DNA of 64,000 nucleotides, taken from Rhizaria sp. SCN 62-66 (lineage: Eukaryota). Both the position numbers and the translations under genes were made by a program. Location of the stretch: assembly GCA_001724265.1 (NCBI GenBank), contig MEDY01000061.1, positions 1 through 64,000 of the forward strand, in the 5' to 3' direction. The notes under the pieces were generated by a model. The model did no database searches. It saw nothing but the letters and a program-made list of their open reading frames with translations, and had not been told where the DNA came from. This document shows positions 8,766-53,488 of this stretch, one piece after another (the first letter of the stretch is position 1; each line of letters opens with the position of its first letter).

Positions 8766-11700
8766 TCACTGTTGCTCGCTAGCTTTACTGTTGGCGGTGC
8801 TGCTGCGGCGACGGCTGCGGACACTTGTGTTGCTGCTGCTGCTACTGTCAACGGCCGCAAAGCTGTCAAATATCGCTGCGTCCGCACACGCGGTACCAGC
8901 GTCGGCGTGACTGCATGTGTTGCTCATGCGAGAGCTGAGGCTGTTCAGGTCTGATGCTTCTGCGACTGCTTTTGCAGCTGCTGCTGGGGCTGATGTGAAT
9001 GCTCCTGCTAAGCTCTTAGTCATGAGCTTAGCAGTCCTCGCGTTGGCGTTGCGAGTCGGGCTAGAAACGATGCTACTGCTACTGCCGCTGCTAACGCGAT
9101 GACTGCGACTGGTACTTGTGGTGCTAGCGGTGGTGCGAGTGCGCGTGCGGGTGTTACTCTTGTTTGTGATCTTATTATCGTCGTAATCGCGATCGCTGGC
9201 GCCAGCGTTGTCATCGCCGTCGCCGTCATCACCGTCTGCGTTATGTTTACTCTCACTGTCACTCTCGCTAGCAGCAGCATTGTCACCGTCAGTGTCAGTG
9301 TCAGCATCAGTATCAGAGTCGCTCAGCGCGTTCTTGCTCTTGTGACTCCCGCTGTGTGCCCGACTAGTCTTCGCAGTGGTGCGCTTGGAGCCAGCAGCTG
9401 TCGCCCCCTTAGACGCAGATGGCGCGTCTAAGTACCTCTTGCGACCAGCACCCTTCGAGGAGACAACAGTGAGGCCTGGAGACAGCAACAAGGACTGCGG
9501 CTGCGGCCGTGACAACACGCGAGACTGAGACTGCGGCAGAGAGAGTGGTTGTGAACTGCTACTTACACCACGCTGAGTCCGTGTCGGTGTAAGTACAGTT
9601 GATGCCTGGAATGGCCGTTGAGGAGACTGTGTCTTTGAGAGCCCGGGTCCCGCAAGCTCTCGCTCCTGCTCGAGCTCTTGCTCTTTCTGGTCAACGTACC
9701 CACTGAGACTGTCGTCTCCGCCTTCTAAGTACCTATGCTCGAGCTCTAAGTACTTATCGACAATTAGCTCAGACGGGGCCACACGCAACGCGCTAAGGGT
9801 GTTCAGGTACACAGAAGTTAAGCCATACTTACCCACGATAACGCCCTTCGATGCATCAGCCGCCTCAGCCTCCGCGTCTGCTGCAACTGCCTCTGTCCCC
9901 GCTGCGGCTGCAGCAGTTGCTGTCGCCGACTCGATGACCGAGCGCGCTGCCGGCGCCGCTGCCGCCACCAGCACCTTAGGCAGCCTCACAACCGCACTCT
10001 CGCTGCCGCTACCGGGGCTCGGGGAAGCGCCGCTGTCCGCGTTTCGCTGCAGGGACTCAAGCTCGAGCAGCGCGACCGAGGCGAGTCGGGCGACCGAGCC
10101 GAGCCGGGGGCACTCTTTGTGCAGCGACAACAGCTCTAAGGGGGTACTTAGACCGACTGCGTTGGTGCTCTGACTGAGAATGTGTGTTGCGGTAGAGATA
10201 CGGCCCAGTAACACGCTATCTTCAGCCTTCGCAGTCTCTTCGAGCCAGCGCTTGACCCTGTAAGGGGTACTCACACTTACACTCGCACTCGTACTCACGT
10301 TAGGGCTGCCTAGCATCGCCGTTACAGGAGGGGTCTGCGTGGTGCTTAAATACGATGTAAGGGCGAACCTGACCATGTGTGCGAAATACGCGTACACATC
10401 GGCGGCTTCACTTCCAGGCACCCTTACGCTGCGGACGCGCACCCTTAAACCTTCCTGCGCTGCGGTACGGGTACTTACACTGGATGTAAGGGGCACGGCC
10501 GTGTCGACGAAGTCGGGATGCCGCGCCAGCCCCAGCAGCAGCAGCGGCAGCACCGCTTCCGGGCTCGCCGCCGCCGCCGCTGCCACCGCCGCCGCCGCCG
10601 CGGCCGTGCTGGCGGTGGAGTTAGCATTGCCGCTAGCGAGAGAAGCGTTGGCGTTGTGCGCGATAGACTGCGCTGCCGCTGCGAGGGCCCTGCTCACGGT
10701 CACTTTGACGCGAGTCAGAGCGGCCGAAAGCGCGGCGGCGGCGGCTGGAGCCAGGGCGGGATCGGGCGACAGCAGCATTAGAGCCGGCAGCAGCGGCAGC
10801 GGCAGCGGCGACGGCGACGGCGGCGGGAGCGGCGGCTGCAAGGACTGCAACTGCTGTACGTTTGGCGGAGATTGCGACAGGGGTGCTGCTGCTGCTGCTG
10901 CTGCTGTCGATGCTGCTGTAGCCGTGGGCAGTATGGTGAGATAGAGGCACAGCGCTCGGCGCACTGAGGGGCTGTCGTGGTGCGCCACGAAGGCGAATGC
11001 CTGGGAGACGTCGTTCACTAAGGGGGTACTTAGACTGCCACCTTGTTGCGGCGCGGCCGGTGCTGTTGTGAGACTTGATGTCAGCCAGAGAGGCAAGTGG
11101 GGGACGGGGAAAGTCAAGCCGCCTACCCACTGCGGCGCAGGCACCGAACCCAAGCCGCCAGAGATTAAGCCGCTTGTTGTTGTGTGAGTGGTCATGGTGA
11201 CGAGCGCGGCTGCTGTCGCAAGCAGCAATGCATTGCGCACAGTACTTAGATCAACACCGTGGTGCTTAGAAGGCGGCTGCGGAGTTTGCGGAGTAAGTAC
11301 CCCCGCCGTAGCCGCGAGTGTAAGGACTCCTGGCGGTGTTAGCAATGGCGCAGCACCCGCGCTCCTGAGAATGTACGTGACTGTGGGCAGCGCCCTTAGA
11401 AGCAGAGAGAACAAAGGGGCAGCGTTGGCACTTGCACTATTGATACTGCTGCCGCTGCTGCTGCTGCTGCTGCTGCTGAGACTGTTGTTGTTGGTAAGCT
11501 GCTGCGACAAATGGCGGACAACTGCAGTCAACGCCGCAAGCGCCGCAATGCGTGGCTGCAGCAAAGCAGCTTCAGCTTCAGTCTCAGCTTCTACGTCTGC
11601 CTCTGCTGTTTCTGCCTTCGATTCTGACGCAGCCAAAGTCTCAGTTGCAGTCATAGTGTCGTCGCCAGCTGTGATCACGCTATGTTGAGCACTGCGAATG

Positions 11701-14700
11701 TCATTGTAAGCGCTCTCAGTAGCGCGCTTCGCAAGAGCGCGTAAATGCGCTTTAGCGTCTTCGTCTAAGGGGGTGGACAAGTCAAAGTCTAAGGGCCACT
11801 TCAGGCCGCCATTAACACTTACAGCGAGGCTAGAGCTGCTTAGATGACCTGATTGTATGCCGATAGCAGCACTCGTACTTGAGCTCGATGTGATAGGGCT
11901 AGTGTTGTTGTTGTTGTTGCCAATGACAGTTGCCACAGCAGCGGCCGCAGTTGCGGCAGTCGTTGCAGCTGCGGCCGCCGCGGCGACAGCGAGCTGATCA
12001 GGGGTGAGGACGGAAAGTAAAGCCGCACTTAGACGTCCCCAGGTACTCAGGTCGTCGTAATCACCCACATCGTGGCGGTTAAGATGACTTAGATGAGTGT
12101 ACGCAATCGAAATTAAGCCGGGGACCCTCTGAACCACAGCCAACACCCACATCACTGCGTCAGTAAGCGCTGCGCAATTTAAGTCAAGCCGTGTCAGCGG
12201 CGAATCAGAGGTAGGTCGCGCGCCCGCGTCAGAAGAGTGGCCGTCGCCGGGCGTTTTCGTGTTCGGTTTCGCGGCTTTGGCCTTCGAAGCCGACTTCGTT
12301 TTCGGAGCCGCCGCGCTCGCACTCGCACTTGAACTAGCCTGTGTGTCGTTGTCAGTGCTGTTCTCGTGTGAGTTTTGACACTTGGCGGCGATTGTCGTCA
12401 GTGCCTTTGATGCGTGATCAAGGTATGCAAGCGCCGCCATCGTCACTGACAGAACGATCGAGCGCGGCTTAACTTCCGCCGCGGCAGAGGTACCCTTGAT
12501 ACTCGTGGTTGCAGGTCCCCTGCTACTGCTACTGCTGCTGTTGCGTACGGTGTGAGTGCCTTCAGAGTCTTGATCAAATTGCACTAACCTGTCGCCAAAC
12601 GAGCCCACCATCTCGCTCCCACTGTCGCTGCCAGCAGTGTCACTACTAACGCTTGATGTTGGCTTGGTGCCTGTCGCTGCGGCAATGATACTCTCGACAG
12701 TCACGACTGAGCTCCTCGTCAGCAGCCACGATGAAGTTAAGCTGTCTTGAGAAGCGGGAGTTAAGCCGTCTTGCGCTGAAGAGGAGTTTAAGCCGCTAGC
12801 TGACAAAAGTAAAGTCGAGTGCGCAGCCCAGAGAGAACGCATGGCGGCTTGACTTTGAACTGACACGCTGAACAGCGTCGTCGCAACTGCGGTTGCAGCA
12901 GTCTTCCGCTCTTGCTCCTGCCCCTGCCCCTGCCCTTGCTCATGTTCGTGTTTCACACGAGCAAGCGTGCAACACGTATTCGTGGTGGTTGTGAGCGTCA
13001 CTGTGACAGGAACGTTATTGCTGACGAGACGGAGACCATTAACAGTGATTACCCTTGCATTGCCACCCACATCGTCATCACTGCCGTTGTCTATATTCGG
13101 GCCATTCGGAGCAGTTGCATCATAGTCGTTGCTGTTGAAATTAGTTGCCTTGTTGCTGCTCATATTATAAGCCGCAGCGCGGAGACACTTAGATTTGAGC
13201 ATGCCGCCGCCGTTGGACGACATCAGCCGACTCATGACGCGAGCGCGCTCCCAGTAACTCAAGCCGCAAGGGATCGATGTTACGCCGCTTCCTTGCGATG
13301 ACAAGGGAGTAAAGCCGCTTCCGAGCTTCAATTTTTCTTTCGCAGCAGCGTTGTTGCTCGGCTTAACGGGAGTGACGTTTGCGTTGCCAAGTGAAATGAT
13401 ATAAAGCAGACGCGTTTCGACCATCGATGCAGCGGCAGCACTGCTCGCAGCTGCGGTGGTGCTGCGAGCGTGAGCGTTGATGCTGCTGACGAGGACTAGC
13501 AGCCACTCGACGAACAGCATGCTGCCCGCACTCGCGCCCGCGCCGTCACGAGTACTTGCGTTGCTTTGACTCGTGTGGGTGGCATTTGCCGCGTAAGTAA
13601 TTGTGGGCGGCACAGGTGTAAGTAGCACGGCAGGAAACAACGACACGACCAAGTCTAAGTACCACAGCACGGATCCCCACATGGACCACGCCTGATCGCA
13701 GTGCGCCGACTCGCCGTCACGCGCAATGACAGCAGCGCTGATAGCGTCATCACGCACGCCCGCACTCGTAGCGGCTGGGTTGTTCTCGTGCGCTTTGCGA
13801 GCATTCGGCGCAGCTGGGGCGAGAGCGGTGATCTTCGTCGCGTTCACGGCCGCGGCCACAACCGCCGCCAACAAGTCGCCCCGGCACAGACACAGGGACA
13901 GCCTCAGCACCAGCCGTCCCGCCAGCGTGGCGTCGGCCTCGGAGGCGGGACCGAAAAAAGCGGAGCCCGCGGCCGCAAATGCGTTGTTCTGCTGTGCCGC
14001 GGCGGTATTGAGGGCCCCGACCGATGCCAATGCTGACTGCAGTTGCGACTAAGGCCGAGACTGCTGAGACTGTGGCTGTTTGGCCTTGGCGCACGCACCA
14101 GCTTTGCCCGCTTGCTTGCCGACGCCCGCACTCGCTCCCGCACTTGAGAGGCTCACGTTGTTGTTGGCGCTGGCGCTGGAAGCAAACGACACAGGCAGGC
14201 CGTTGGGCAGCAAGGCGGGGGTGGCGGCGGCGGCGGCAACCGTGGGGATCAGCATCACTAAGGGGGTACTTACATCGCCGCCAGCGACCCCACTCGCACT
14301 CGCGCTCGCATTAGCATTAGCATTAGCAGTAGCATTTGCAACAGCGTTTGAGTCAGCACCACTGCGAGCAACTGCGCCAGCCGTGTTTGTGTAGGCAAAA
14401 GGCAGTGAAGGCAGTGCGAATGCTGACACTAGCGAGGCCACAGCTAAAGGCGAGTAACTAAGAGTGGCTTGACTTCCTGAAGACGCGGCTTGACTTATCG
14501 CAGTGCGCTCTAAGGGGGCAGCGGCTGTGACGAAGGCGGTTGCAGCAGAAGTAGCAGCAATGGTGCCAATTGATGGGTGGCAAAAGGCGGCTAACAACGA
14601 AGCCATGTCGTTGTTATGTGCATTACTCGTGATAGTTTTCAGAAATGCAAGTGCCCTCTTGGCGTCCAAGTCAAGCGCGGCGGCACAGCTATCGTCGTCT

Positions 14701-17700
14701 AAGGGGCTGGCGGCACTTACACCTCCGCTACTTAGACTCGTGCTGGGGAACAGAGATGCGCCCTGGGTGACGACGGCAGGCGTCGCAACTGCTAAGTGCG
14801 CTGCGACGAGACTCAGTGCCCCATCCCTTACACTGTCTAAGTGCTCATTCACACCTGCGTCATCAGCGTTCCTCGGCTTCTTATCTGCCGCGGTCGAAAC
14901 ACTTAGATGCGCACCGCTTAGACTAGCCTGCGCTGCGATAGCTGTCTGTAAAGCTGAGTGGATGTGCTTTTTGTTCTCAATCAAGGCGGCTAGACTTTTG
15001 CGCGAGTCCGAAGTCAGGCCGCACAGCAGAGCAAAGAACACGCGGCCACGGTCACTGATGCTACAGCTCAAGCTCGCGACATTCGCGCCACCGCCGCTGC
15101 CGCTGCCGCTTGCGCTCGCGTGGGTGTGTGACGTGCTGTTGGCGCTTGCACTCGCGTTGATCTGACTCGCCGTGTTGTTCGAGTGAGCGCTCACGGTGGC
15201 GGCTAAAGGGGGCACAGGCGGCAGGAGCACGCGGGTAAGTAGCTGCTCAGCCCTGAGAACCCAGAGGCCGGCGCCGGTACTTAGACCAGTTGGGATGCTT
15301 ACGCTTCCAGATGCAGAAGGCAAACTTGTTTGACTGTGAGTGTAAGTACCTGCGTTGCGATTGTTACTGGGGTGCTGATGTAGCAAAGAAGTTGTCGCAG
15401 AGTAAAGAAGTTTAGCCGCATGAGCGCTTGATTTAAGTGAAGTCGCCTCGTCGTCAAGATTGATCGCTTCTACGTCGCTATTGTCACTCATAGCCACCCG
15501 CTGTTGCTACTGCTGCTGCTGTTGCGTAATCAGCAGCTGCTCTTGCTGCCATGCCCAAAGACTCGAGTCAACCGCATTGACACTCACGCTCGCATGGGAA
15601 TCGCGAGCGCCGCCGGTGTCGGCGCTAGTAACAATGCCTGCAGCGGCCGCCAAATCCGCTACTGCTGCTGGCACCGACACAGTGGACGCTGTTGTGCTTG
15701 CTGTCAGCGCGGCTGGCACGAGCGCAAGCACCGCTGCTGCTGTCACCGCTGCAACTGCCACTGCCGCTGCTGTTGCTGCCACGGGTGTTGCAGTGTCTAC
15801 ATCGCAGGGCAACTCAGCTTCCGCATCGCAGGGCTTAGCTTCTACAGTCAGCGGCTTCCCTTTCGCCCACGCTGGCACGCAATACATCTTGAATGTAAGC
15901 GCCAAGCCCCTTAGAGCCGCATTGCGCACACTGAGACACTTGTCGCGGCAGCGGCCGGCCAACGCAGTCACCAGTGCAACACCAGCATTGGCACTTGCAC
16001 TCGAGCTAGAGCTAGAGCTAGAGCTAGAACTAGAGCTCGAACTCGTCTCAGGAGCAGTGAGAGCTCTCGTGTTGCTGGCATTGGGTGTGATTGTGTTGAA
16101 CAACGCATGCGGCTTAACTTGCAGCACACTGCTCACAGTCATAACAGCTGCCAGCCGTACGCTCTCGTGCGTGTCTAAGATGCGGCTTAACATAAAATGC
16201 GCGATAGCGGAGCCTGCGAGCGTCGCTGCATTGGGGCACGGCACTCCTAGGCAGAGAGCGTTCAGAGCCTCCTTATCTAAGGGGGTACTTAGACAAGCGT
16301 TAGCGGACGCATCGCCACTAAGTGTGGGAAGCAATAGAAGCAACCCCTTAGATAGCGAGCAGGCGACTGTGCGCACTAAGGGGTTGGGGTCGTTAAGCCG
16401 CGCCAGAAACGAGGAGAATGAAAGCGGCATGATACTGAGCGCTGCCATCAGCAACGCATTGCTGCTGTTGCTGCTGTTGCTGCTGTAGCTGCTGCTGCCG
16501 CCAGCGTTGCTGCTGGCGTTGCTCGCTTCAGTCGCGGCGTTGCTGCCGATGCTAGAGCTTTGAGAGCGAATCGACAGGAGCTTGGCAACACTCGCATCTA
16601 CACCAGGCGTGCCGCTCGTGGTTGCCGACAACGAAACAACCGCCGCCGCTACCGCCGCTTCTGAGACGAAGATGCGGCCGCAAAGCAGGGTATACAACAG
16701 GCGCACGCTGCCGGCGTCTAAGGGGACACTTACATTTCCCGGAGATAATGCTGCGTTAGACTGCGCATGTGATGATGCACTTAGACTGAGGCGTGAAGCG
16801 AGAAACAGATCTAAGGGTGCGACAAGATTCGGCGCGAATGAAAGCAAGCACAGCAGTAGCGACTCCGCAGAGTCACGAGAATTTAGGCCGCTCCCCCTAA
16901 ACGACGAGTACGGATCATCATCACGCTCACAGTCACTGCCTATGTCATCATCGTCGTCGTCGTTGTCGTTGGTGTTGGTGAGACTCGAGTCATACTCGTT
17001 AAAGTCGTACGCATGAGCTGTGTTCACTTTGTTTTTGCTGCTGGTCAAACCTGCGCTGAGACTGTGTTTTGCAGCGCAGCGGTCTTGGTCGAAGTTGATC
17101 CGCCGCTCAAAGTCAAGCCGCGCCGCTTGGCACGCAGCCGCGTGACCGTGGGCTGACGGAGCCAGCACAAACGCGGTCGCAACCGCGCTGCTGCCGCTTT
17201 TCTGACTCTTGCTTGCCTTACTCCCGCTCGTCTGCGTACTCGCGACCGCCGTAATCGGCGGCGTTGGTGCAAGTGCTGCTGTAAGTACCCCTTTGGTCGC
17301 CTTGCGTTCCGTCGATCTAAGTACCTTCCGGAGCAGGCTACTTACAGGCACGGCCAAGTGACTGTGCGCGCCCCTAAGGACCGTCAGCGAGAGCGCGTAG
17401 GTCCCGGCGCCCGCGCTGGCCCGCGCGGCGTCTTCTGTAAGGGTACTTAGATTGCTGTTAACACCCTTAAACGCGTCGCTGACATCTGCGCGCCAGCGGA
17501 GCTGCGGCGTGGTACTTAGACCTCCGTGCGCGGGGGTACTTAGATGCGGGGTACTGAGACTCCACGCCCCCCCGCGGCGGCCGTTGAAGGTGTTGACGGC
17601 GGAGGACACAGCTTCGCTCGCGCGCGCGGTCACGGCAGCCGCAGCGGCGGCCACAGTGTTGCTGCTCAGGTCACTCAGGTTCGCATGAGCGCTGAAGTCG

Positions 17701-19094
17701 CGAATGTGGGCGTTGTTTGCGGAGGCGGCAGTACTAGACACAAGTGGCTGTAAAATGGTTTCAAGCATACCATATGTCAAGCTGCTGTCAGAAGTTAAGC
17801 TGTCCGCCGACTTAATGCCGCTGGTGCCGTCTAAGGGGGTGCTTAGACTGAGGTCCGTAACGATCGCAGTGACAATGTAGGCCGCCGCGGCAGTGACCCG
17901 AGAGAGTAGATGTGACAATGACGGTGGCACCGGCCGCGGCTGTTGCAGCAACAGCAACCAGTGCTGTTGCTCTTGCTGCTGCTGCTGCTGCTGCTGGTGG
18001 TAGTGGTGGTGGTGATGGGGGTGGTCGCTGTCGAGACCTAAGGGGGAGCTTAGACGCTTCATCAGCGGCACTTCAGTGACTGTGAGAGCCTCCTTGGTAC
18101 TTAGGTGCGCGTTGGCACTTACAATGTCGTACAGACACGTACACAGCCTCTCACAAAGCGTCACACCAACACTCGCCCCATTGTCGCCGCTACCGCCGAT
18201 GCCGCGACTGTACCCGTGACCGTGGCCGTGGCCGTGAGTGCTTGTTCCTGACCGGGGCTGCGGTTCTGACTGTGCGAGAGAGCTCAGCAGCGTGGTCAGC
18301 TGGGGCGTCGCAAGCGTCTCCAGCAGCAAAAACACGCGCGTGACAGTGCTTACGGTCTCAATCGTGGAGGCGACCACGTCGGACAGCGGCGTCAGAGGGC
18401 TGAAACCGCACTCGACCGCCACCGCCGCCCCCGTCACTGCGGCAGCCGCAGTCTCAGTCGCTGCGGCTGCCGCAGGCGCAGCTGGCATTGTTGCAGTATT
18501 GTTAGTGTTGGCTGTTGCCGTTGCTGCTGCTTTCGCAAGCGAGTGCTTGTTCGTGGCTGTAGCCAACGTTGCCAAGTCGGGTAAAATGGACAGAAAGAGC
18601 TCAAACGCAGCTTCCAACGCGTCCTCGTCTAAGGGGCTGGCCGCACCAATGTAAGTACCTACAGCAACACCAGTCACCAAGTGCGTCGCAGATGTACTGT
18701 AAGAGCCACTTAGAGCGCTAACACCGCCGCCGCGGCAGTTGGCGGGAACAAACACCCTGAGAACGTCGGCCAAGCAGCAGGCTGTAAGTACGCGGACCCC
18801 CTTAGAGCGGTGCTTAGTGACGAACCGGTCGCTCAGATCGCGCGCTAACGCAACCAACAACGCGCGCGCGCTCGCGTCCGAGCGGGACGGCGTGCTCGGC
18901 AGCGCTGGGAGCCGCGCGAGCGCGCGCGCGTGATGTTTGAGCCGCTGCACGAGCTGCTACGGGGCCAGGCTCCGGTCCAAGGGAGGCAGCGCCTGGAGTT
19001 CAGTCGTGACCAGCAGCGCCGGGTCGGCGGCGGATCCGCTAAACAGGGCACCGGGCAGCGCCTGCGCGGGGGTTGGGGCCGCGGGGAGCGACAT
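8766..19094 (-). CDS. PDS5: Sister chromatid cohesion protein PDS5, single about 3442-aa frame read through three in-frame TAG codons
   Basis: ORFs 18957.., 15507..18950, 14049..15497 and 8766..14030 share one frame and are separated only by TAG. PDS5 blocks occur in the expected order across them: QLVQRLK, KHRSKGVRVLTACCLADVLRVFVP, FLARLNDPNPLVR, RILDTHESVR, RCRDKCLSVRNAALRGLA, ISDRGRVFFALLCGL and PEAVLPLLLLGLARHPDF. Start is the ATG at 19094; the frame ends in TGA. Confidence 0.88.
14049..14051 (-). other. In-frame TAG in PDS5 (probable Gln)
   Basis: KQPQSQQSRP*SQLQSA, a Q/S-rich context; the frame continues for more than 1750 codons. Confidence 0.8.
15507..15509 (-). other. In-frame TAG in PDS5 inside a polyglutamine run (probable Gln)
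   Basis: CAA CAG CAG CAG CAG TAG CAA CAG = ITQQQQQ*QQRV. Confidence 0.85.
18957..18959 (-). other. In-frame TAG in PDS5 (probable Gln)
   Basis: LDRSLAP*QLVQRLKHH, inside the conserved PDS5 N-terminal helix. Confidence 0.8.
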
Positions 19095-19504
19095 GCGGGG
19101 CTGGGGCAGGCCGCAGGGGGCGGGGGAGGTTAGGGCGCGCAAGCTGCGTGCGGTTGGGTTTGGGAAACTGCGCGATAGAAGGGCAAGGTCAAGACTTAAA
19201 AAAATATATATTTGTGGGTTACAAGAAAAAAACATGAAACATATAAATATCAAGTTGAAGCGCTGTTTTACGATCAGTCCATGGAGATATCCATTCATCA
19301 AATATCGCGGGTCGAAGGCGTTGAGTTGCTGTTCTGTCGGTTCGCACAAAAAGATATGGCCACAAACGCACAAACGCGAAGATGAGTCCCCTGCCGCCAC
19401 CACAACGAAAGGTAAGGGCGGGTTTGGGCGAAAGGAGATGAGAAAGCGGGTGTTTGCGGAGAGGTGTGCTAACTTACTAAAGTTACCCGCGTTGTATATC
19501 CACA
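19095..19504. promoter_or_regulatory. Putative bidirectional promoter between PDS5 and La
   Basis: Head-to-head start codons are 410 nt apart, with an AT-rich core. Confidence 0.5.
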
Positions 19505-21322
19505 ATGGCCACCGTACGTTATACACATTTTTATTTTATTTGTCTTCACTGCAGCTTCATAACATGCTCTATTTCCTGAACGCCGTAACTCACTTTAGCC
19601 CCTCTCTTGCTTTCCTGTCCCACCTTCCCTACCCCGCCCTGCTACCCTGGTCCGCGACTGTTTTCCTTCTGCAGACCGCTGATAAGCTCGTCAAGCAGTT
19701 CGAGTTCTACTTCTCCGACTCGAACCTCCCTAACGACAAGTTCCTGAAGCAGGAGCTCGCCGACAACGACGGCTGGGCGCGCCTCTCCGTGCTGGGCTCG
19801 TTCCAGCGCGTCAAGGCCATCGAGACCGACCTCGCGGCCATCGCCGAGGCGCTCAAGACTTCGACCAAGCTCGAGGTGTCCGAAGACGCGCTTAAGGTCC
19901 GCCGCACCGCCGCGCTCGCCGACAACATCGACCTCACCCCCCAGACCATCTTCATCAAGGGCCTCGACGCCGCCTGGTACGTCGCGTAACTCTAATTTCA
20001 GCTCGTAATATCTCCGTGGTATCGCGCATCACAGCAGCAACTCCAAGTTATTTCTGCACGCCAATCACTTAATGAACTTAATTCAATGCGTTAATCACTC
20101 GATCCTCACATATATCTATCCTTTTCCTTTTCCATTATTCTCCATCGATGCGCCTGATCTAGGGGCCTCGACGAGGTGACCAGCTTCCTCGAGTCCAAGG
20201 GCGTCGCCCCCCAGTGCGTCCGCCTCCAGTTCGTCAAGGAGGAGGGCAACAAGAAGCGCACGGGCGCCGCCTGGGTGGAGCTGGCCTCTGCCGACGCCGC
20301 CAAAGCCGCCGCCGAGCTCAAGATCACCGTCGAGGGTGCCGAGGAGCCCCTCTCGATCCAGCTCAAGTCCGCCCTCCAGGACGCCAAGAAGGTACGTATT
20401 CGTGCTCTCAGTAGCAAACATACAAGCCCCATATACAGTATAGCGCACTTTCGACGTCCAAGCATGTCGTATCTTGGAATGGAATCACAATGCTAGTATC
20501 TCTGTGTTCGCTTTCCTCACATTCGCCACTTTCTCTTTCTTTTTTTTCGCCTTGACGACTCCAGGCTGCCAAGGAGGCCGTTGAGGCCGCTGCCGCCGAG
20601 GCCGCCGCCGCTGAGGCCGCCGCTGAGGCCGCCGAGGCCGCTTTCGTCGCCGACCACCTGCTCACGGTCTCCAACCTGGGTGGTGATGCCTCGCGCGAGA
20701 CGATCAAGGGCTGGGTCGAGAAGGCCGGCGCTAAGTCGCAGTACGTCGACTACGAGCGTGGCCTGCCCCAGGTACGTACAGCTAGCGCTAACAGAACAGA
20801 ACGCATGGTGAGATCAGCCTGTCGCCTTGATCTTATCTTGAGTCAACTTGAAGCATTGTTTTCAAGTTGCGCCGTGATAAAACTTTGGTGGTATATCTTG
20901 CTTGTTTCATCAATTAACAACGATATTATTGGTATATTTGGAATTTACATGCTAGTTTTGCATATTTGAACATCACTCATCTCAACGCTCTACGCACACT
21001 TTCCCACTTCTCTCCACTTTTCCATCTATTTGCTGTACTTCCACAGGCAACCATCCGCCTGACCAAGGACGCCTCCGCCCCCAAGGCTGCGGCGGTGGTT
21101 GCCGCGCTGTCTGCGCTGCCCGCGTCCGAGATCTCCGGCGGCGCCGACGGCGCGGCCGTGTTCGCGGTGGTGAAGGCCGACGACGAGGCCAAGGTGTGGG
21201 CTGTGCTCGAGGAGAAGCGCGCCGCGCTCAAGGCCGCCATGGCCGCGCGCGGCGCCCAGGGCCAGGGCGGCAACAAGCGCCGCATGGGCGGCAGCCACGG
21301 CACTAAGCGCACCCGCCGGTAA
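19505..21322 (+). CDS. La autoantigen / SSB-like RNA-binding protein (La motif + RRMs), 5 exons
   Basis: Exons 19505-19513 (9-nt coding first exon, MAT), 19675-19976, 20163-20391, 20565-20771 and 21047-21322. La motif KLVKQFEFYFSDSNLPNDKFL...LEVSEDALKVRR, RRM-like segments, and a basic C-terminal NLS-like KRRM...KRTRR. Ends in TAA. Confidence 0.92.
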
Positions 21323-22146: not shown

Positions 22147-25100
22147 ATGTCACAGCAACCACCACCGACGCAGGCGCAGCTCCAAGCGCAGCTGCAGTTG
22201 CAACAGCAGCAACAGTTGCTGTATATGCAGCAGCAACATCAGCTGTTGCAGTTGCAGCAGCAACAGCAGCAACAGCAGCAGTCGCCACTGTGGCCGCTAC
22301 AATTGCCGTTGCAGTCTCAGCTTCAGCAGCAGCAGCAGCAGACGTACGCTCCCCAGGTGCCACTGTCTCAGCAGCAACAGCAACAGCAGCAGCAACCGCT
22401 GTCTGTGTCATTGCAGCCGCCGCTGCCGCTGGCGCTGCCTCAGCCTCAGCCTTCGTCTTTGGCTCTGTCACAGTCATCGATGGCGCAGCCGCAAGTGCAG
22501 TCGTTTTCCGTCTTTTCCAACCCCTACCAGCGCAACACTCTACAGCAGCAGCAGCAGCCGCTGCAGCAGCTGTCATTGGGCGGCGCGAGCAGTTCCAGTC
22601 TCAGCAGCCTCAGCACCTCTAGCGGCAGCCTCCTCAGCAACACGCACTCGCACACAGGCTTCGCGCCGCCACAGCACCAACTGCAGCTCCACCACCACCA
22701 CCAGCAGCAGCAGCAGCCCTACACCCACAGCCTTCACACCCGCAGCCAGAGCCAGAGCCAGAGCCAGAACCAGAGCCCGAGTCTAAGCGCCAGCGTCGGC
22801 AGCGTGCACAACGTCACTGCGCGCAATCTAAGTCCCCCGCAGTCGAATGTAAGTGCGCCCGCGTACGCCAGCGCGTCGGCCGCGAGCACCCCCCTCGCCA
22901 GCACGCGCGTCTGTGTAAGTGCCAATGTAAGTGCCCCCGTGAGTGTAAGTGACGACCAGGAACGGCTGCTGCGGCAGCAGCTGCTGCTTGTCGAGCAGCG
23001 CAAGCAGCAGATCAAGTCGCAGCTTCAGCAGCAACAGCTCCAGCAGCAGCAGTCGTCTGCGTCGTTGTCACTGTCCATGTCTCTGCAATCGCCTGTATTG
23101 CAGCAACAACAACACACCCCACGCAGTCAGCTGCTGCTGCAGCAACAGCTCGCGTCACAACTGCAACATCAACAGCAACCGCTGTTCCCTCAGCAGTACC
23201 AGCAGCAGCAACAGCACTGGTTGCAGCAACAGCAGCTGGCACTCCCGACCGGCCCCCTGGATGCCGCCGCGAATGCGGCGTCCACTTTTGACGCCGCGCA
23301 GCGGGAGACTGCGGAGGCCGCCGAGGCCGAGGGCGAGGCCTAGCGCGTGCCACGCGGCCGCAAGGCGCGTCACGAGGCGCTGGCGGCACTGCGGCAGAAC
23401 GTCGAGGCCACTCGCCCGCACCACCACCACCAGCATCACCACCACCATCAACATCACAACAGACACGGCGACCATCTCAGCGGCAGCGGCAGCGGCAGCG
23501 GCAGCCCCCACAGCCACACTAGCCGCGGCAGCAACAGCGCCAACAGCAGCGCGGGGGGCAGCCACGGCAGCCCCCAGGGACACCGCAGCAGCAGCAAGAG
23601 TGGCGGCAATGGCAGCGGCCTAAGTACCACCTTAGCGGGGGCCAGCGCGCCGCGGCTGCGGACGAAGCCAGACAAGTACACGGGGCACTCGCTGTGGCCC
23701 CTTGTAGCACCTTTGGTCCGCAAGCTCCAGGGCCCGACGCTCTACAGCAACTGGCTCATCAAGAACATGCTCATGGTCGGCGCGTACCCGGGGTCGTCCT
23801 TCACTGCCATGCAGGCCGGCAACGTGCTGGCGCTGATGGATCAGGGCATCAGCACCTTTGTGTGCCTGCAGTGGGAGCTGGACCCTATGGAGAGGGACTG
23901 GAAGCGCAAGAATAAGATCCGGCCCTACCACACGCAGATCACGCGGCTCGTCAGGTGCGTTTCGGTTTGTTGGTTTACACGCATATATGCTAAGATATCT
24001 CTTATTTTAAGAAAGTCATAATCTTCACATTTTACCTTATAATGCACTTTGAATTGTGTTTGTTTCCTTATTTATATCTTGTGCTTCTAACTCACTTTCA
24101 TTTTGCTCTTTTCGCTACGACTCGTCGCTTAGGCAAAGGAACCGGTACTTACAGATGGCCGGTGTGCTGCCGACTTACATTCGCGCCGACGGGACCTCCG
24201 CTGAGGCTAGTCCTCCTTGTCAGTCTCTCTTGTACAACAGCAACGCTAGCCCTGCTGATGATGACGACAAAGACACCGACAGTAACAGTCACATGCTCAC
24301 CGATACTGATAACCCTAACGACAGCACTCTCGTTGTTCGCCACAGCAGCAGGGGCGGGGCGACTAAGTACCCTTACAAGTGCGGCGTGATCGACACGCGC
24401 ACTCTCAGCACCGCCGCCTACGCCGACCACGTCGCCCGCAGCGCGCTGCACGAAAGCCAGGCCGCGTCGGCTGCGCAGCTGCTTCACGAGGCCAAGGAAC
24501 GGCTCGCGCAGGCCGCAGCCGCGCTGGGACGCGCGCGCGCGCGCGTGGCACTTATGGCCGCGGCTGCGGTCGCGACGGACATGCGTGGGGCCGCTGGGGA
24601 CGCAGCGGCGGCAGCGGCGGCGGCGGCGGCGGCAAGGACTGTCACCGCGGGCAACCAGGCTGCGGCGGCGATCGTGGTGTGCGACCTCGCCAAGGCCATG
24701 GTGTGGCGGCTTACCTTCCTGCGGTACCGGCGCCACTGCGCGCGGTCGCTGGCGCAGCAGAAGCACGCGCCGCCGCCGCCGCCGCCCTTCCTCGCAGCTG
24801 AGCGCCTCGGCGGCGGCAGTGACGGCTGCGCGCCCTACAGCGTACGTATAGACATTCACTAAAATGAGACTTTGGCGGCATATGTATTACTGAACTAGAA
24901 CGAATTTTAGTTTTATCACAAACATAGTTATTTTATTTTCTAATGCAAGTAATCATCTCGAAGAATGTTTATTTTTGCTCATTGTTATTTCAATATTTGC
25001 TTTCTCTCCCCCACATCACCCTCCCCTCCCTCCGCCCACCGTACACAGTGTCCGCCGCCGCGGTGGCCTCTACACCAGCCCGCGCAGCCGCTGGTGGGTC

Positions 25101-26205
25101 CCCCGCGCTTTATCTACTTCCCGATCATCGACCAGACGACGGCCGAGGACGCGGCCGTGGCGCGCACCGCGCATCGCGTCATGGTCGAGCTCTCGCTCGG
25201 CCGCCGCTGCTACATCCACTGCTGGGGTGGCCACGGCCGCGCGGGCACGCTCGCCGCCGTCGTGCTGGGGGCCATGTTCGACCTCACGCCGCAGGAGGCG
25301 CTGCTGCGGCTGCAGCTGTGCCACGACACGCGGGCGGACCCGCAGCGCACCAGGTCTCCCCAGACCGTCGAGCAGCAGGAGCAGGTGCGTGCATACATAC
25401 CATACCGATGTTCCGCATGAAAAATACTAAAATTTTCACGTATTGGCGAACAGAATGCGAGAGGTGATATTACAATTTTGAAGTTTCATCTCTAACTCTA
25501 ATTCTTTTTATATCCTTATTTTGATGATGTGTATTCCGCTTTTGATGTCTAGGTCGCGCGTTTGATCGCGCAATTCCGCGAAGCCCGCAAGAACTCCTCC
25601 AGCAGCGCGATCCCCCCCGCTAACAGCAGCAGCAGTACTGACGCTGCCACGCCGGCCAGCCGCGGCAGCACGAGCACTAGCACTGGCAGCGGCAGCGGCC
25701 ACAAGAGCGGCAAGGGCAGTGTGACGAGGACCATTTTCGACCGCCTGGACCCGTACTGGCCGGTGGACGTCCAGCTCATGCGGCGGCAAATGCTGCTGAA
25801 ACAGCTGCTGCAGCAAGAGCGTACAGAAGCGAAACAGCGCAAACAGCAGCAGCAGCCACAGCAGCTGACTGGGGTGAGTCACAACGCTGGCTCTATTTGT
25901 AGCGACGAGAAGTTTAGCCGCCTGTTCGCGCAGGCGAAGGGTGTGCTTATCCGCTCTAAAGGGGTACTTAGCGACATCGCATGGTGCTTTGACGCCCTCT
26001 ACGAGGACTATATCGACGCGGCCGGCGCCATCAACGCCGCTAGCACGGCTCCTAGCATCAGCGGTAGCGCCAGCGCGACTGCAAACAGTGACGCTGCGAG
26101 CGACTACAACGACTGCGAGCTGTTTTACTACCAAAACCTGTCGAGCCACGAGAGCTTTAACCCTGACGACTACGACGACGCCGCTCTCATCCACACCATC
26201 AACAC

Positions 26206-26249
<44 letters not shown>

Positions 26250-29200
26250 ACAGCAACACAGCGCTGAGCCGTAGCTCCAGCATCAGCCGCAACGCAATGA
26301 CTAGAACCAGCAGCAGCAACAGCAGCAGCAGCAACAGCAGCTCAATCTCGAGCAGCAGCGCCAACGCCGCCCCCGCGAAGATTGCTGCTGCTTCGACCGC
26401 TGCCGGCTCTGGCGCGAGCCCTGCGCCTGCTCCGGTGCCGTGCCAGCTCGTCGCTGTCGCCGCCGCCGCCGCTGCGACGACTGCGCCCGGCGTCAGTCTG
26501 TCTCTGCACCCGCTCAGCACTCCGCGAACGCACTCGATGGAGCTGACGCAGGGGCTCAGTACCCCGCGCAGCAGTGTAAGTACCCGCGAACAGTCTAAGG
26601 GGGCCGGCAGCAGGAACAACACGTACAACAACAACATCAACACTAACTCTCATGCCGGCAGCGCGAACCTTCACGCTCACACGCAAACTCACACTAGCAT
26701 TCACGCGAATGCGAGTTCAAGCGTGAATGCAAACGCGAGTGCGAGTCAAAGCAGCAGCAACATTGCCAGCGGCAATGCGAGTACCACTGTGAGCGCTAGT
26801 CCTGACCGCAGCTTCAGTCCCAGCCGCAGCCACAGTCAGAACCAGATCCAGAGCCAGAGCCAGAGCCACAGCCAGAGCCGCCGCCGCAGCCACAGCCAAA
26901 GCCAAAGCCACTCTGCTCACAGCCGCAGCTACAGCTAGAGCTACAACAACAACAACGACAACAACACCGGCGGCGGCCGCGGCTTGGGTTTGCAAGTTGG
27001 GAACGGGATTGACGGCCAGCTGTTTGAGCCGCCGCTGGACAGTCTAAGCCCCCCCTTAGACGACCTCGGCAGCCCCTTACACGGCGCGGGCAACAACAAC
27101 GACGGATCGTTGTCGATGGAGATGCATACAAAGGAGGAGCAAATGCAGCGCCAGCTATTGCAACAACAACAACTACAACAACAACAACAACAGCAACAAC
27201 AGCAGCAGCCGCGGTTGCCATTGTCGCCGCAAGCGGCAGCCGGAGCATCAACGACAACGGCCGCCGCCGCCGCCGCCGCTGCCGCCGCTGCGACGGCGAT
27301 GACGGCGACGACGACGACGACGACGCTTACGCTCACCTCAACGACGACGACGACGACGACGATGGTGAATGCCGGCTTGGGTCTCAGTGCCCCGTTTCGT
27401 GGTGTAAGTGCTCCGTCGTACGGCGACCCTTACACGCTTCCCACATCCCCGGGTCCTTACAAGCTGAGTCTGCCCGCACCTCCGCAGCAGCAACAGCAGC
27501 ATGCGGCGGCGGCAGCGGCGGCTTACAATCAGAGCTACAACAGCAGTGCATACACGAACAGCGGTGCGAACAGCTATGGCAACGCCAACATCAAGTCTCC
27601 GCTTTCACATTCGCAGGCTCAGCAGCAAGGTTCTCTGAGCAGTGCGAGCGGTGTCGCGAGTGTTGGAACACATGGCACCTCGCGGCCTAACTTCAACACC
27701 GCCACGGGTGCCAGCGATGCAAACGCTGCCAACATGAACCCTAGCTCAGGCAGTCTCGCGGCGAGTGGCGGCACAACCGCGAGCGACTCTGCGCTGTTGC
27801 CGTCGTTGCTGTCTCTGAACCGCGCGCACAGCGGCGAGGCCAGCAACACACAGCACCTTCCTCAGCATAGCCTCAGCCACAGCCTCAGCCTCAGTCCGAC
27901 GCGGTCGCACAGCCACTCGCACAGTCGAATTCACAGCGTGAGTCAAATCCACAGTCAAATCCACAGCCAAATCCACAGCGTCAGCCAGAGTCAGAGCCAG
28001 AGCCAGAGCCAGAGCCAGAGCTACAGCCACAGCCACAGTGTATCGCGCTCTCACAGCCACCTCCACAGCCTCAGCGTGAGCCGCAGCCGCAGCCACAGCA
28101 ACAACTACAGCTACAACAACTCGCGCGTCGTCAGCGGCAACTTCCGCAGCCGCAGCCTCAGCAGCAGCGGCGAGGGCCGCGGCGCCAATGCGTGCCTGCG
28201 CAACTGCGTCTGCACGTGCGACCCCGCCAGCGGCAGCCGCCGCCACAACAACGACGACGACGATGACGACAGTGGCTGCGCTAACAACAACAACAACAAC
28301 AACAACAACAGCAGCAGCTGTGACGGCAGCGGCGGCGGCAGCGGCGGTGAAGGCGGCAGTGGTGGCTCTAGCGGTTTCAGCGCGTGCGATTGCTGCTGCT
28401 GTCCGCCGCCGATCCCCACCCGGCTCTTTCTCGAGGCGCTTACCCTCGTCGCCAAGAGGTACTTACCGGGGGCCAAGGGGTACTTACACGGGGTCGACCT
28501 CTCCACGGTCACGTACTCAGACGATCTCGACGCCGTAAGTATTGCTGGCATGAACGACCCCCGCCCGCCGCCTCTGCCCGCCCTCTCGCCCCAAGAGCGG
28601 CTTAACTTATGCGCAGCGCTCACGCACCGCATCCGGACGCACCGGCACCAGCAGCGGCTTCACTTAGCTCTGCAGTTGCTGGCGGCGCGTCGGCGGCAGG
28701 CCGTGGCGCAGACCAGCGCGTACATGCACCTCAAAGCCTGCAAGGACAACGCCGAGCTAGCAGACCGCGCGTTCGTGCACCTCACCGCCCTTAGCAACAA
28801 CAACGGCAGCAACGCGGCCGCGATCGAGGCCGCCTCGGCCGCGGCCGCGGCCGCCGCGACGAGGCGCGACGCCGCCAGCAAGTCGGTCAAGGCGGCCACG
28901 GCGGCGGCGGCCGAGGCCGAGGCCGAGGCCCGCGGCGCCGAAGTGGCCGCCTCAGTGCAGTTCAACAAGGACCGGAGCCAGACCGCTGCGGCGCTCGCGG
29001 CGGCCAACAACGTGGCGCTTTCCCGGTACGAGCTCAACAGAGGCGGTGTGAGCGGCGACAGCGTATCCAGTAATGCCATCGCCGTAATCAGCAACAGCAG
29101 CAGCAACAGCAGCAGCAGCAGTAGAAGCAGTGGCGGCGTTGGTTTGTACAGGAAGATCAAGGCTGCTCTCGGCGGCTTAACTTTGATCAAGCCCGGGTCT

Positions 29201-31635
29201 AAGAAGTCCGCTGCCAAGTCTAAGGACTCATCATCAGCGTCGTCGTCTTCTCAGGAGGGGCTTACACTGACCCACTACAACAACAACAGCAGAGTTAGCC
29301 TCTGCAGTGACCCCCCGAGTCCTACCGCTAGCTCGACCGTGACAGCGACCGCGTCGATCCCCGTCCTTGCCGCGGACGACGCCAAGGCACTCGTGAGCAG
29401 CCTCAAAAGGCGATACGGCCGCGTCAAAGGCGCGATTTTAACGACGCCTATTGACTCGATCCCCGACGTCGAAGCGAAGCCGCACGGCGCGGAAGTGAAG
29501 TCGCCAACCACGGGGGGTAGACTCGAAGTTAAGCCGTCGCTCCAAAAGATCCCCGAGGGCGACAGTACGACCTCTCGCCCCAGCACCAACACTGACGCAG
29601 ACATGAGCACGAATGCAGATGCGGGCGCAAACGCGGGCGCAAACGCGAACCGTGCAAGCAGCAGCAGCAGCGCTTCGCCCAGCAAGGGCAAGACTGTTTC
29701 GTTTGCGAGCGCGAGCGCAGATGCAGTCGACCGTGAGCCCGGTGACGGCAACGGGAAAGATGCCGACTCTGATGCTGACGCTGCTGTTGCTGCTGCTGCC
29801 GCTGCCGCCGGCGACAACGACGACGAAGACGACGACGATGACGATGACAGCGCCCTCCTGGCTGAGGCCGAGGAGGAGGACGAGGAGCCTTACTCCCTCT
29901 CGGCTTTCGCCATCGTCGCCCTGACTGACAGCCACGCCACCTCGCACGAGGACACGACGACTGCGGCCCGGCTCGAGCTCGACGCGATCGTGCGCCGCGC
30001 GCTGCCGTTCGAGCCGCTGCCGAGGCTCGCAGCGCTCGCGCGGCTTCGGTTCAAGAGCCCCGCGATGCAGCAGCGCCGCCGGGCGCGGAACCAGCAGCTT
30101 TTGGCTGCGGCTGCTGCTGCTGAGGCGGCCACTAAGGAGGTGAGCTACAGCAGTAACAACGCTGTGACCTTTGTTAACCCGACCGTGAGCTCTAGCAGTG
30201 TTAGCAATAGCACCAGCGTGAGTTCCAGTGTTAACCCGAGCCCCGTAGCCCCGACTTCTCCCAGCAACGCGCTGTCGCAGTCGCCGTCGCAAAAACTGTC
30301 TCAGTCTCAGCCGCAGCCTCCGTCTCAGTCTCAGTCCCAATCGCATTCGCCGTCGCCGTTGCATTTGCAGGTGCAGCTGCCGCGGCCTCCAGTCAGCGAT
30401 AGCAGTCTAAGTACCCCCTTAGACTCCGGTGTAAGTACGCCATCAGTCCCTGGACCGCGTGCTGGCACACGGCTGACACAGCTGCAACAACAGCAGCAAC
30501 AACAACAGCAGTTGCCAAGTGTTTCCAGCACTACGAGCGCTGCCAGCGCTGCTATTGGCGCTGCTGTTGGCGCTGTTGCCGGTGGTGGTGCTGGGAATGA
30601 CGACGGCAACCCTGCACTTACCCCGGTCGAGTCTAAGGGTGGGGTACTTACACCCGTGACTCTGACGGCGAGCTCGTCGTTAGCGCGCCCACGCTCGCAA
30701 GCGAAGCCATTCGCTTCATCGGCGTCGTCATCGTCATCCAACTCGAACAACTCTGCAGCAGTCGCTGCTGATGCTGCAAACGCACAAAGCCAGTTTGTTC
30801 CCCAGCCACCGACAACGCCGAACAACAGCAACAGCATCAACATCAACAACAACGCTGCTGCTTTGTCTGGGAACTCTCCCGTTGACGCCGCCGTCTCCCG
30901 AACCAGCCGAAGCGCCAATGCCAGCGCTGACCCTCGCGCTACCACAAACGCTGCTGCTGCTGGCGGTGCCGCCATCGTGGGCCGCACTGCGCCCCAGGGC
31001 GCTAGGGCACACGGCGGAACACATGGCGGAACACATTCCGCGATGCCGCCGGCCGCGACTGTGATCGTCGGCCGTACCGCGCCCCGCCCGACGCCGCTTT
31101 CGCATCCGCAGCAGTCGATGCTCTGGACGCTCGCGCCGTACGGCTTCTCGGCGGCGCCGCCCACCGCCGCAGCTGCTAATGCAGGCGCGTATTCGAACGC
31201 CAACCGTGCTGCCGCTGCTGCGGCGGCGGCGGCGGCGATGGGCGACGTGAACAGTGTCAACAGCCGGACCAGGGCGAGTCTGGCTGGGGCTGGGGCCGGC
31301 GCCGGGAATGCAAGTGGCCCTCACATCGGCCTCGGCCGGCCCAGTGTCAGTGGGCCGCAGCCGCGGGTCGTTGGCGCCAGTCTAAATGGAGGGGGCAAAC
31401 CGAACGCGTTGGCGCTCGACCTCAAGGAGCCCGAACCGAGTTTGCCCTACGACGACTTGACTTTAGACTCGATGACCCGGTCGCAGACGTTCACGAGCTC
31501 CCAGTCACGTTCGCTGTCGCAGTCAATATCGCTTTCGCAGCAGTCTCAGTCGCGGTCGATTGGCCACTCGCAGTCTCAGTCTCAGTCTCAGTCTCAGTCT
31601 CAGTCTCTGTCTCAGTCTCAGTCTCTGTCTCAGGC

Positions 31636-31676
<41 letters not shown>

Positions 31677-32026
31677 CGCAGTCGGGTAAATCGCAGTCGT
31701 TTGGCTCCAACCATGCCCAGCCTTTGGCTCAGAGCCAGGGCCAAGGCCAGGGCCAGGGCCAGGGCGCAAGCGGTACCGGTGATGCTCACAGTCAATCTGC
31801 GTCCAGCCGCTCTCGCTCTCACCCACAGCAGCAGCAGCAGCAGCAGCAGCAATATCAGTATTACGACAACAACAGTCCCCACAACGTCAACATCAACGCC
31901 ATCCACAACGGCACCAGCGGTGCTGTGCAGCCCGATGACCACACCGACGACGAGGGCCTTCACAGCGACGAACGGCACGACTATTACGACCCGCACGCGG
32001 ACAAAAAGGGCTTTCGGCACCGGTAA
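22147..32026 (+). CDS. Giant (about 3100 aa) Cys-based (CX5R) protein tyrosine/dual-specificity-like phosphatase with long low-complexity regions; two in-frame TAGs; 4 exons
   Basis: Exons 22147-23954, 24133-24841, 25049-25384 and 25553-32026, phase-compatible. Motifs: SNWLIKNMLMVGAYPG, TFVCLQ, FIYFPIIDQ, P-loop YIHCWGGHGRAGT and SPQTVEQQEQV. TAGs at 23341 and 26936 are in frame. Ends in TAA. Confidence 0.8.
23341..23343 (+). other. In-frame TAG in the phosphatase gene (probable Gln)
   Basis: AEAEGEA*RVPRGRKAR; joins the polyQ N-terminus to the catalytic region in the same frame. Confidence 0.75.
26936..26938 (+). other. In-frame TAG in the phosphatase gene (probable Gln)
   Basis: SQSQSHSAHSRSYS*SYNNNN follows SQ/SH dipeptide repeats; the frame continues for about 1695 codons. 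Confidence 0.8.
30404..30425. repeat. Best copy of a dispersed intragenic palindrome AGTCTAAG-TACCCC-CTTAGACT (8-bp arms, 6-nt spacer)
   Basis: Related copies at 10135, 11018, 14258, 16276, 17829, 18038, 25955, 27042, 43938, 44046, 47721, 48571, 48672, 49929, 52581 and 53526, plus many half-sites. Confidence 0.85.
31571..31676 (+). repeat. Coding microsatellites (CAGTCT)n then (CAG)n encoding SQ repeats and polyQ
   Basis: Tandem hexamer and trimer repeats directly visible. Similar tracts occur throughout the giant exons. Confidence 0.9.
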
Positions 32027-53200: not shown

Positions 53201-53450
53201 AGGAGGCGCGCTGCAGTGACGCCGGTACTCGCGGTACCGGTGGGGGAACCCGCGGTGCTGCTGCTGTTGCTGCTGCTGTTGTTGTTGAGGGGCGTGCGGG
53301 CAGGTGTGGCGGTGACATCGGTCGTGTCCGTGACGAGGGTGTAGGAGACCACGAGGAGGCCTGATGTGGCACCGTCCAGCACGACGATCGGCACAGTCGC
53401 AGCGGCGGCGGCGGCGGCGGCGGTGGCCGAGGCCGAGGCTGATGAGAGAA

Positions 53451-53488
<38 letters not shown>

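Follow-up and report, generated by a model that had tools for sequence, protein, structure and literature searches.

In-frame UAG codons, most probably sense, in two long genes of a GC-rich and probably cercozoan wastewater protist

What does the codon UAG mean to an organism that carries it, in frame, inside two otherwise intact genes? This question is raised by a 64,000-nucleotide (nt) stretch of contig MEDY01000061.1 (assembly GCA_001724265.1, deposited as Rhizaria sp. SCN 62-66), analyzed here as a whole and called the window, in which a PDS5-like cohesin-associated gene on the minus strand and a DSP/PTP-type phosphatase gene on the plus strand are interrupted by five TAG codons. A sequence-only reading of this DNA had proposed that UAG alone has become a glutamine codon, while UAA and UGA remain stops. 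The analysis described below indicates that UAG is very probably translated in this organism and is not an effective terminator. The reading preferred here, to which a probability of about 0.55 is assigned, is that UAG is a sense codon, most probably for Gln, in a probably cercozoan host in which UAA (the dominant stop) and UGA terminate translation. As DNA, the TAG codons are real, exonic and in frame, and the genes that contain them are open and conserved downstream; what we infer is that they are translated, which amino acid they specify, and how a tRNA and eRF1 bring this about.

Two long genes interrupted only by TAG

The PDS5-like gene (8766..19094, minus strand) starts with the ATG at 19094, comprises 3442 codons and ends with a TGA at 8766-8768; reading TAG as sense leaves the minus-strand frame open between 19535 and 8766. 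From its ATG onwards, the gene contains three TAG codons (codons 46, 1196 and 1682) and no TAA, TGA or frameshift. The first (TAG 1, 18957-18959, codon 46) has the context SLAP-TAG-QLVQRLK, the second (TAG 2, 15507-15509, codon 1196) lies in a poly-Gln run, QQQQQ-TAG-QQ (CAG CAG CAG TAG CAA CAG), and the third (TAG 3, 14049-14051, codon 1682) in a Q/S-rich stretch, QSQQSRP-TAG-SQLQ, where P-TAG-S-Q echoes a P-Q-S-Q located seven codons upstream. Out of frame, the same stretch holds 132-136 TAA plus TGA codons per 3590 codons, so the open frames are not due to chance. The gene is apparently intronless; a scan of its coding region found a minimum GC content of at least 0.44 in any 90-nt window, whereas the introns of this DNA, proven and predicted, are 168-275 nt long, have a GC content of 0.34-0.37 and start with GT[AG]CGT.

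The Pfam match to PDS5 (PF20168, E 1.3e-17) starts at the residue directly after TAG 1, and BLASTP alignments with three PDS5 homologues from a representative search span it, with A, D and D in the column concerned: DRSLAP-x-QLVQRLK is aligned with DKSITP-A-ELVRRLQ, and the other two homologues carry D. A start scan found no ATG between TAG 1 and the conserved N-terminal VRVLTACCLADVLRV block, and therefore this block can be produced only by readthrough. A 92-residue fragment in the protein database terminates at the first PDS5 TAG; an all-against-all representative search with the PDS5 N-terminus gave five matches, which were only distant ones plus this truncated fragment of the organism itself, and the 485-residue piece between TAG 2 and TAG 3 gave no matches when compared with longer proteins.

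Near-identical DNA is present in bioreactor, wastewater and activated-sludge data sets of several studies, which share 1.00 (X1, possibly the source), 0.93 (X2), 0.91 (X3) and 0.78 (X4) with the window. Contigs of X2, an independent study, span 11650-15830 and 18181-20612 without a single difference, so the TAGs at 14049, 15507 and 18957 are unchanged there, and X4, a slightly diverged strain with single-nucleotide polymorphisms (SNPs), covers 15507 and 18957 and keeps both TAGs, its differences lying elsewhere. Independent DNA thus bears out the three TAGs of the PDS5-like gene as genuine, and the two of the phosphatase gene, at 23341 and 26936, fall outside the listed contig pieces and are seen in the window sequence only. 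The PDS5 frame contains nine strain SNPs, all downstream of TAG 1, and six of the nine are synonymous third-position changes, as opposed to an expected synonymous fraction of 0.26-0.32 (P 0.011-0.037), which suggests that the protein sequence downstream of the TAGs is under purifying selection.

In the phosphatase gene, an open reading frame and a four-exon model place a Gln-rich N-terminal extension in exon 1 (22147..23954, plus strand), followed by exon 2 (24133..24841, with an X6 RNA contig on 24220-24595), exon 3 (25049..25384), which encodes the catalytic core with its HCxxGxxR signature (Pfam PTP-SAK PF22784, E 2.4e-12, on 25106-25384), and exon 4 (25553..32026), a long low-complexity C-terminal part that ends with a TAA at 32024-32026. 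The predicted introns between them are 23955..24132 (178 nt, GTGCGT..CTTAG, GC 0.34, placed from sequence and frame), 24842..25048 (207 nt, GTACGT..CACAG, GC 0.37) and 25385..25552 (168 nt, GTGCGT..GTCTAG, GC 0.35). The four exons join in frame into 3108 codons plus the TAA, with two TAG codons, no internal TAA or TGA and no frameshift, and this model confirms the proposal that both plus-strand TAGs belong to one gene. TAG 4 (23341-23343, codon 399, EAEGEA-TAG-RVPRG) is upstream of the catalytic domain, so that the PF22784 exon lies behind it, and TAG 5 (26936-26938, codon 1413, SRSYS-TAG-SYNN) is followed by 1695 more open codons before the TAA. An orthologue search with the region around TAG 4 gave no matches. 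A sixth TAG in the open frame (25550-25552, plus strand) was rejected as a codon, being the 3' splice site of intron 3.

The five TAGs are flanked by ordinary GC-rich coding sequence without intron-like features and, on the strength of these flanks and of the PDS5 GC scan, were rejected as splice sites or parts of in-frame introns. RNA contigs match several parts of both genes, downstream of the TAGs, so both genes are transcribed; the listed RNA pieces span no TAG. The positions, frames and contexts given for the five TAGs in the sequence-only reading all proved correct, as did its count of two genes with some 6500 codons (3442 + 3108, or about 6550) free of TAA, TGA and frameshifts.

Further coding sequence came from a metagenome scan with the pattern of an 18-nt in-frame element of the window (described below), which yielded nine small contigs from other metagenomes, about 35 kilobases (kb) in total. 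Two of them are chance matches and were dropped from all counts: L002, in which a bacterial epimerase and a glycosyltransferase are separated by a TAG stop, and L005, which has no eukaryote-like gene. Scans of prokaryote genome contigs and viral contigs with the 18-nt pattern gave no matches, and a scan at the protein level for the proteasome gene of a relative was likewise negative. L006 contains a frame of 705 codons, open at both ends, in the same Ser/Ala/Asn/Gln-rich style, with four TAG codons and no TAA or TGA; one TAG lies within a run of 17 Gln codons and one in SQ-TAG-QS. A TAA in the PRMT5 gene of L007 (3598-3600) was considered as a second reassigned codon and rejected, since it is part of an in-frame, pyrimidine-rich intron that separates the TIM-barrel part from the catalytic part; an alignment to human PRMT5 skips this stretch. 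Altogether, the 11 verified coding frames (14,300 codons) contain nine TAG codons, no TAA and no TGA; if TAG means Gln, it would account for about 1% of all Gln codons. The proposal that TAG is sense while TAA and TGA stop is thereby strengthened, by the intact frames, the domains downstream of TAGs, the mostly synonymous SNPs and the absence of in-frame TAA and TGA from these 14,300 codons.

Nine genes have clear ends, and these are TAA in eight, TGA in one (PDS5) and TAG in none. TAA ends the beta-1, La, TRAPPC11-like, WD40 and phosphatase genes of the window and the PRMT5, PNK and L001 genes of the additional loci; for seven genes the count is not circular, because no in-frame TAG occurs anywhere in them. 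The use of TGA as a terminator is represented by one gene, PDS5, whose C-terminus is not conserved. Ambiguous codes, in which a codon is stop or sense according to context, are those of the Condylostoma or karyorelict type; in the small sample available here no gene end out of nine is TAG, and only TAG is affected. TAA ends eight of the nine genes despite 73-90% GC at third codon positions, a strong preference for an AT-rich stop that is also described for Guttulinopsis, which apparently uses the standard code and in which nearly all known transcripts end in UAA (PMC5304391).

The amino acid and the alternatives

The sequence-only reading assigned UAG to Gln, and the contexts of the nine TAGs favor this assignment. 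Two of the nine lie in a QQQ_QQ context, which surrounds 73 of the 743 Gln residues but no more than three residues of any other type (for Leu, 3 of 1295); the probability of at least two such sites among nine is 0.22 for a Gln-like codon, 2e-4 for a Leu-like codon and at most 6e-4 for the others tested. A Gln codon directly follows five of the nine TAGs; the share of codons with such a neighbor is 34% for Gln and 5% for Leu. In a neighbor-residue likelihood, Gln has the highest score (20.9), followed by Leu (5.4). Gln is the best guess from these context statistics and, given that TAG is sense, may be regarded as its likely meaning. A count of codons that interrupt poly-Q runs over all frames was dropped, as two of its four stop matches (a TAA in L001 and a TAG in L004) are not in a verified coding frame.

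Several observations weigh against the reading of UAG as a Gln codon in a cercozoan that stops at UAA and UGA. The two poly-Q sites supply nearly all of the Gln signal, and without them Leu is slightly ahead. This signal may also be partly mutational, because tracts rich in CAG are the likeliest places for CAG-to-TAG transitions, irrespective of the meaning of TAG. None of the TAGs coincides with a conserved alignment column, and the sole alignable site (18957) is variable (A, D, D), so on this point the earlier assignment to Gln draws no help from homologues. TAG is present in three of 11 genes, only about 14,300 codons were sampled, and the 2736-codon TRAPPC11-like gene has none. That none of nine genes ends with TAG is a weak count, and both TAG-bearing gene ends are defined by reading through. 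ARAGORN found no tRNA genes in the 64-kb window or in the nine loci, and no eRF1 gene is present among the window genes, although no search aimed at eRF1 was made; Rfam gave no matches at gathering scores in about 91 kb. Finally, in a tree of proteasome subunit beta-1 (see below) the window protein falls in a clade that includes Guttulinopsis (Shimodaira-Hasegawa-like approximate likelihood ratio test (SH-aLRT) 86), whose relative exLh is described as reading UAG as Leu (PMC5304391).

If UAG is used as preferred here, the ribosome would decode it as an amino acid, most probably Gln, with a tRNA whose anticodon would be CUA, one base from tRNA-Gln(CUG); recognition of UAG by eRF1 would be weakened, and UAA (dominant) and UGA would keep terminating. 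The rarity of UAG (nine in 14,300 codons) fits a young or weakly used reassignment. A more specific scenario, offered tentatively and at somewhat less than even odds, is that an uncultured cercozoan, widespread in wastewater reactors, captured UAG for Gln, kept UAA and UGA as stops and is at an early stage of this process.

A different account leaves the code formally standard or ambiguous and treats UAG as a weak terminator that is read by tRNA-Gln(CUG) through near-cognate pairing, aided by Gln context, so that occasional CAG-to-TAG mutations are tolerated in long low-complexity genes. The scarcity of TAG and its restriction to Gln-rich genes agree with this account, as do the Gln codon after five of the nine TAGs, the Gln codons on both sides of three, and the C that follows the TAG in six, a context reported to be weak for termination in a yeast preprint, which also describes higher readthrough, with insertion of Gln, at stops in a Q-stop-Q context and in Gln-rich transcripts (PMC13192750). 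However, the yeast values of ~1.6-7% per stop (PMC13192750) would leave about 1e-4 of full-length protein after the three PDS5 TAGs, and readthrough at the yeast level therefore could not support an essential gene with three TAGs. Four of the nine TAGs also lack an adjacent Gln codon, TAGs are kept in three DNA data sets of different studies with mostly synonymous differences downstream, and none of the nine gene ends uses TAG. Weak termination under a formally unchanged code is thus regarded as unlikely, and Gln-context readthrough is plausible as an intermediate state. UAG could also be sense for another amino acid, with Leu leading, as in exLh, and Glu, Tyr, Lys or Ser as further candidates. 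Leu cannot be dismissed, because the Guttulinopsis neighborhood holds the UAG=Leu organism exLh; it is second in the neighbor model, is slightly above Gln at the seven sites outside poly-Q and interrupts poly-Q runs in three cases in this DNA, and local repeats would permit E at 23341 (EAEGEA-TAG) and Y at 26936 (SYS-TAG-SY). Against this stand the two TAGs in long poly-Q runs (P ~2e-4 for a Leu-like codon and at most 6e-4 for other residues tested), the five TAGs followed by Gln (P ~4e-5 for a Leu-like codon) and the frequent use of UAG described for exLh (384 in 71 transcripts; PMC5304391) as opposed to nine in 14,300 codons here, and a meaning other than Gln is considered distinctly improbable.

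It is very improbable that the TAGs are true premature stops, whether as pseudogenes or null alleles, as sequencing or assembly errors, or as codons removed by editing or splicing. This possibility can draw on the lack of a listed RNA piece that spans a TAG and on the fact that all nine are of the stop type most easily reached by mutation in GC-rich genes, where 56-62% of nonsense paths lead to TAG; under random nonsense mutation, five stops that are all TAG are only mildly unlikely (P 0.055-0.094), and the weight of the argument therefore lies on the intact frames and not on the type of stop alone. Across their 6550 codons, those frames are free of frameshifts, TAA and TGA; an independent DNA run reproduces three of the TAGs exactly, a diverged strain carries two of them, and no intron-like sequence surrounds the TAGs. 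In addition, the genes are of a single-copy housekeeping type (PDS5), differ downstream mostly by synonymous changes and are both transcribed, with RNA contigs downstream of the TAGs.

Host organism and other features of the window

The window is eukaryotic nuclear DNA, with a GC content of 0.48-0.68 per 4-kb bin and housekeeping genes for a PDS5-like cohesin factor, a TRAPPC11-like protein (2736 codons) and proteasome subunit beta-1; HOP/STI1, Mnd1, a La-domain protein, the DSP/PTP phosphatase and others are also encoded. Low-complexity Ser/Ala/Asn/Gln/Thr tracts greatly enlarge the housekeeping proteins, of which recognizable domains are only small parts, as in the PDS5-like protein (3442 residues, 8766-19094, minus strand), the phosphatase (3108 residues, 22147-32026, plus strand) and the TRAPPC11-like protein (2736 residues, 47296-55506, minus strand). 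The host is probably an uncultured GC-rich protist of wastewater and bioreactor communities and a cercozoan; data sets X5-X10, which have small word shares with the window, were left out of the habitat inference. For beta-1, the best named matches are rhizarian (Paulinella 71%, Guttulinopsis 67%, an unnamed cercozoan 65%). A quickly built maximum-likelihood tree of 28 rows out of 120 matches (all clearly named ones and the closest unnamed ones; 231 columns) places the window protein in the clade of unnamed environmental sequences that includes Guttulinopsis, and this clade is nested in a mostly rhizarian group (SH-aLRT 95). A cercozoan placement near Guttulinopsis from this one gene is a lead only. 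Rosculus vilicus is unlikely to be the source, because its genome is described as having 37.7% GC (PMC10770858), far from the 4-kb values of the window.

The 18-nt element used in the metagenome scan has the form [GTC/ATG/GTG]-TAAGTACCCCCTTAG, and its core is a small palindrome, CTAAG..CTTAG. At most one mismatch allowed, the window contains 15 copies, as opposed to none in 100 shuffles. They lie on the minus strand at 10136-10153, 11018-11035, 14258-14275, 16277-16294, 17831-17848, 48573-48590, 48672-48689, 49929-49946, 52581-52598 and 53526-53543, on the plus strand at 23618-23635, 30405-30422, 43938-43955 and 44046-44063, and antisense at 25956-25973. Fourteen of the 15 are on the coding strand of four genes, in a single codon phase that gives [L/V]-S-T-P-L, encoded by codons rarely used in a genome so GC-rich at third positions. 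The element is unlike the organism's real introns (GT[AG]CGT, 168-275 nt, AT-rich), and it is retained without a gap in the two poly(A)-RNA contigs that span a copy. It is also present in seven of the metagenome contigs (L001, L003, L004 and L006-L009), where other frames and the antisense orientation occur. Its 15-mer was not found in the literature searched, and a comparison of the WD40 protein with the PDB, made to view the element as an insertion, gave no matches. The element resembles a small insertion, placed in frame, that either spreads or is under selection; candidate explanations are a mobile in-frame micro-insertion and an S-T-P peptide motif that is selected.

Introns of neighboring genes were also delimited. 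The proteasome beta-1 gene has a 240-nt intron (41455-41694, plus strand, GTACGT..CACAG) that is in frame and free of stops, and for this reason the automatic call P0002 is a 310-residue chimera, while the transcript-derived Logan protein P0003 (230 residues) is the spliced form. In the La-domain gene (19694-21322, plus strand, stop TAA at 21320), introns at 19976-20161, 20390-20562 and 20769-21043, all starting with GTACGT, are proven by spliced RNA contigs from two runs. Two other TAGs that terminate standard-code open reading frames were rejected as coding: one at 4166-4168 (minus strand), inside a HOP/STI1 intron that starts with GTACGT, and one at about 56536 (minus strand), where the gene at 56-59 kb has an AT-rich stretch that resembles an intron.

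Comparison with known codes

Codes in which UAG and UAA part ways are known from a handful of lineages, and each case tests why these codons usually change jointly (PMC5304391; PMC11687900). Reassignments of UAG only are described for Iotanema spirale (Gln, with an expected tRNA(CUA)) and exLh (Leu) (PMC5304391), and for Protocruzia and phyllopharyngean ciliates (Gln, Leu) and Scotinosphaera (Ser) (PMC11687900). Searches of open-access text found no UAG-only code described for a wastewater protist, nor one with Gln for a cercozoan, and the window probably represents a new lineage with a known, rare type of code. If so, it would give Rhizaria their first UAG-only code of the Gln type and, should the host be a neighbor of exLh and Guttulinopsis, a second and different UAG reassignment (Gln as opposed to Leu) in one UAA-terminating clade. 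A UAG of low usage and with a bias to Gln tracts, close to a rhizarian with UAG=Leu, would be informative on the capture of stop codons. In the early-stage scenario, TAG would make up about 1% of the Gln codons and derive mostly from CAG in Gln tracts, and the pathway would be directly testable, from a weak UAG terminator through reading by a near-cognate tRNA-Gln to a dedicated tRNA-CUA. There would also be a practical consequence, since standard or prokaryote-style gene callers cut genes at TAG and eukaryotic bins from wastewater metagenomes would be mis-annotated as a result.

NCBI translation table 15 assigns TAG alone to Gln. It is equivalent to the hand-made TAG=Q code that reproduces the open frames of the window, and such a table is a description and not evidence. 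Readthrough in a Gln context in yeast is alike in that stops flanked by Gln codons are read as Gln (PMC13192750), as the Q-stop-Q arrangement of three of the nine TAGs would allow, and it differs in its level, a few per cent (PMC13192750), which cannot sustain two or three TAGs per essential gene.

The code of the fornicate Iotanema spirale, as described, is like the one proposed here in that UAG alone is affected, UAA and UGA terminate, UAG is a minority Gln codon and a tRNA-Gln(CUA) is expected (PMC5304391). It differs in that UAG makes up ~8% of Gln codons (PMC5304391), compared with ~1% here, and in its host, a metamonad as opposed to a probable rhizarian; its assignment was based on many conserved columns and a likelihood test (PMC5304391), whereas context is what speaks for Gln here. 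The ciliates Protocruzia tuzeti and the phyllopharyngeans, which are reported to have acquired UAG=Gln independently with UAA as a stop, illustrate that this type of code arises repeatedly (PMC11687900). The window itself is unlike a ciliate macronuclear genome in its GC-richness, its very long low-complexity genes, its introns of 168-275 nt and the cercozoan signal in the tree. With exLh (Sainouroidea, Cercozoa), compared here by description only, the difference lies in the meaning and use of the codon: exLh reads UAG as Leu and has 384 of them in 71 transcripts (PMC5304391), as opposed to a rare UAG in contexts that favor Gln in this DNA. What the two would share is a reassignment confined to UAG, a place in Rhizaria and termination dominated by UAA (PMC5304391), and exLh is possibly the nearest lineage to the organism described here.

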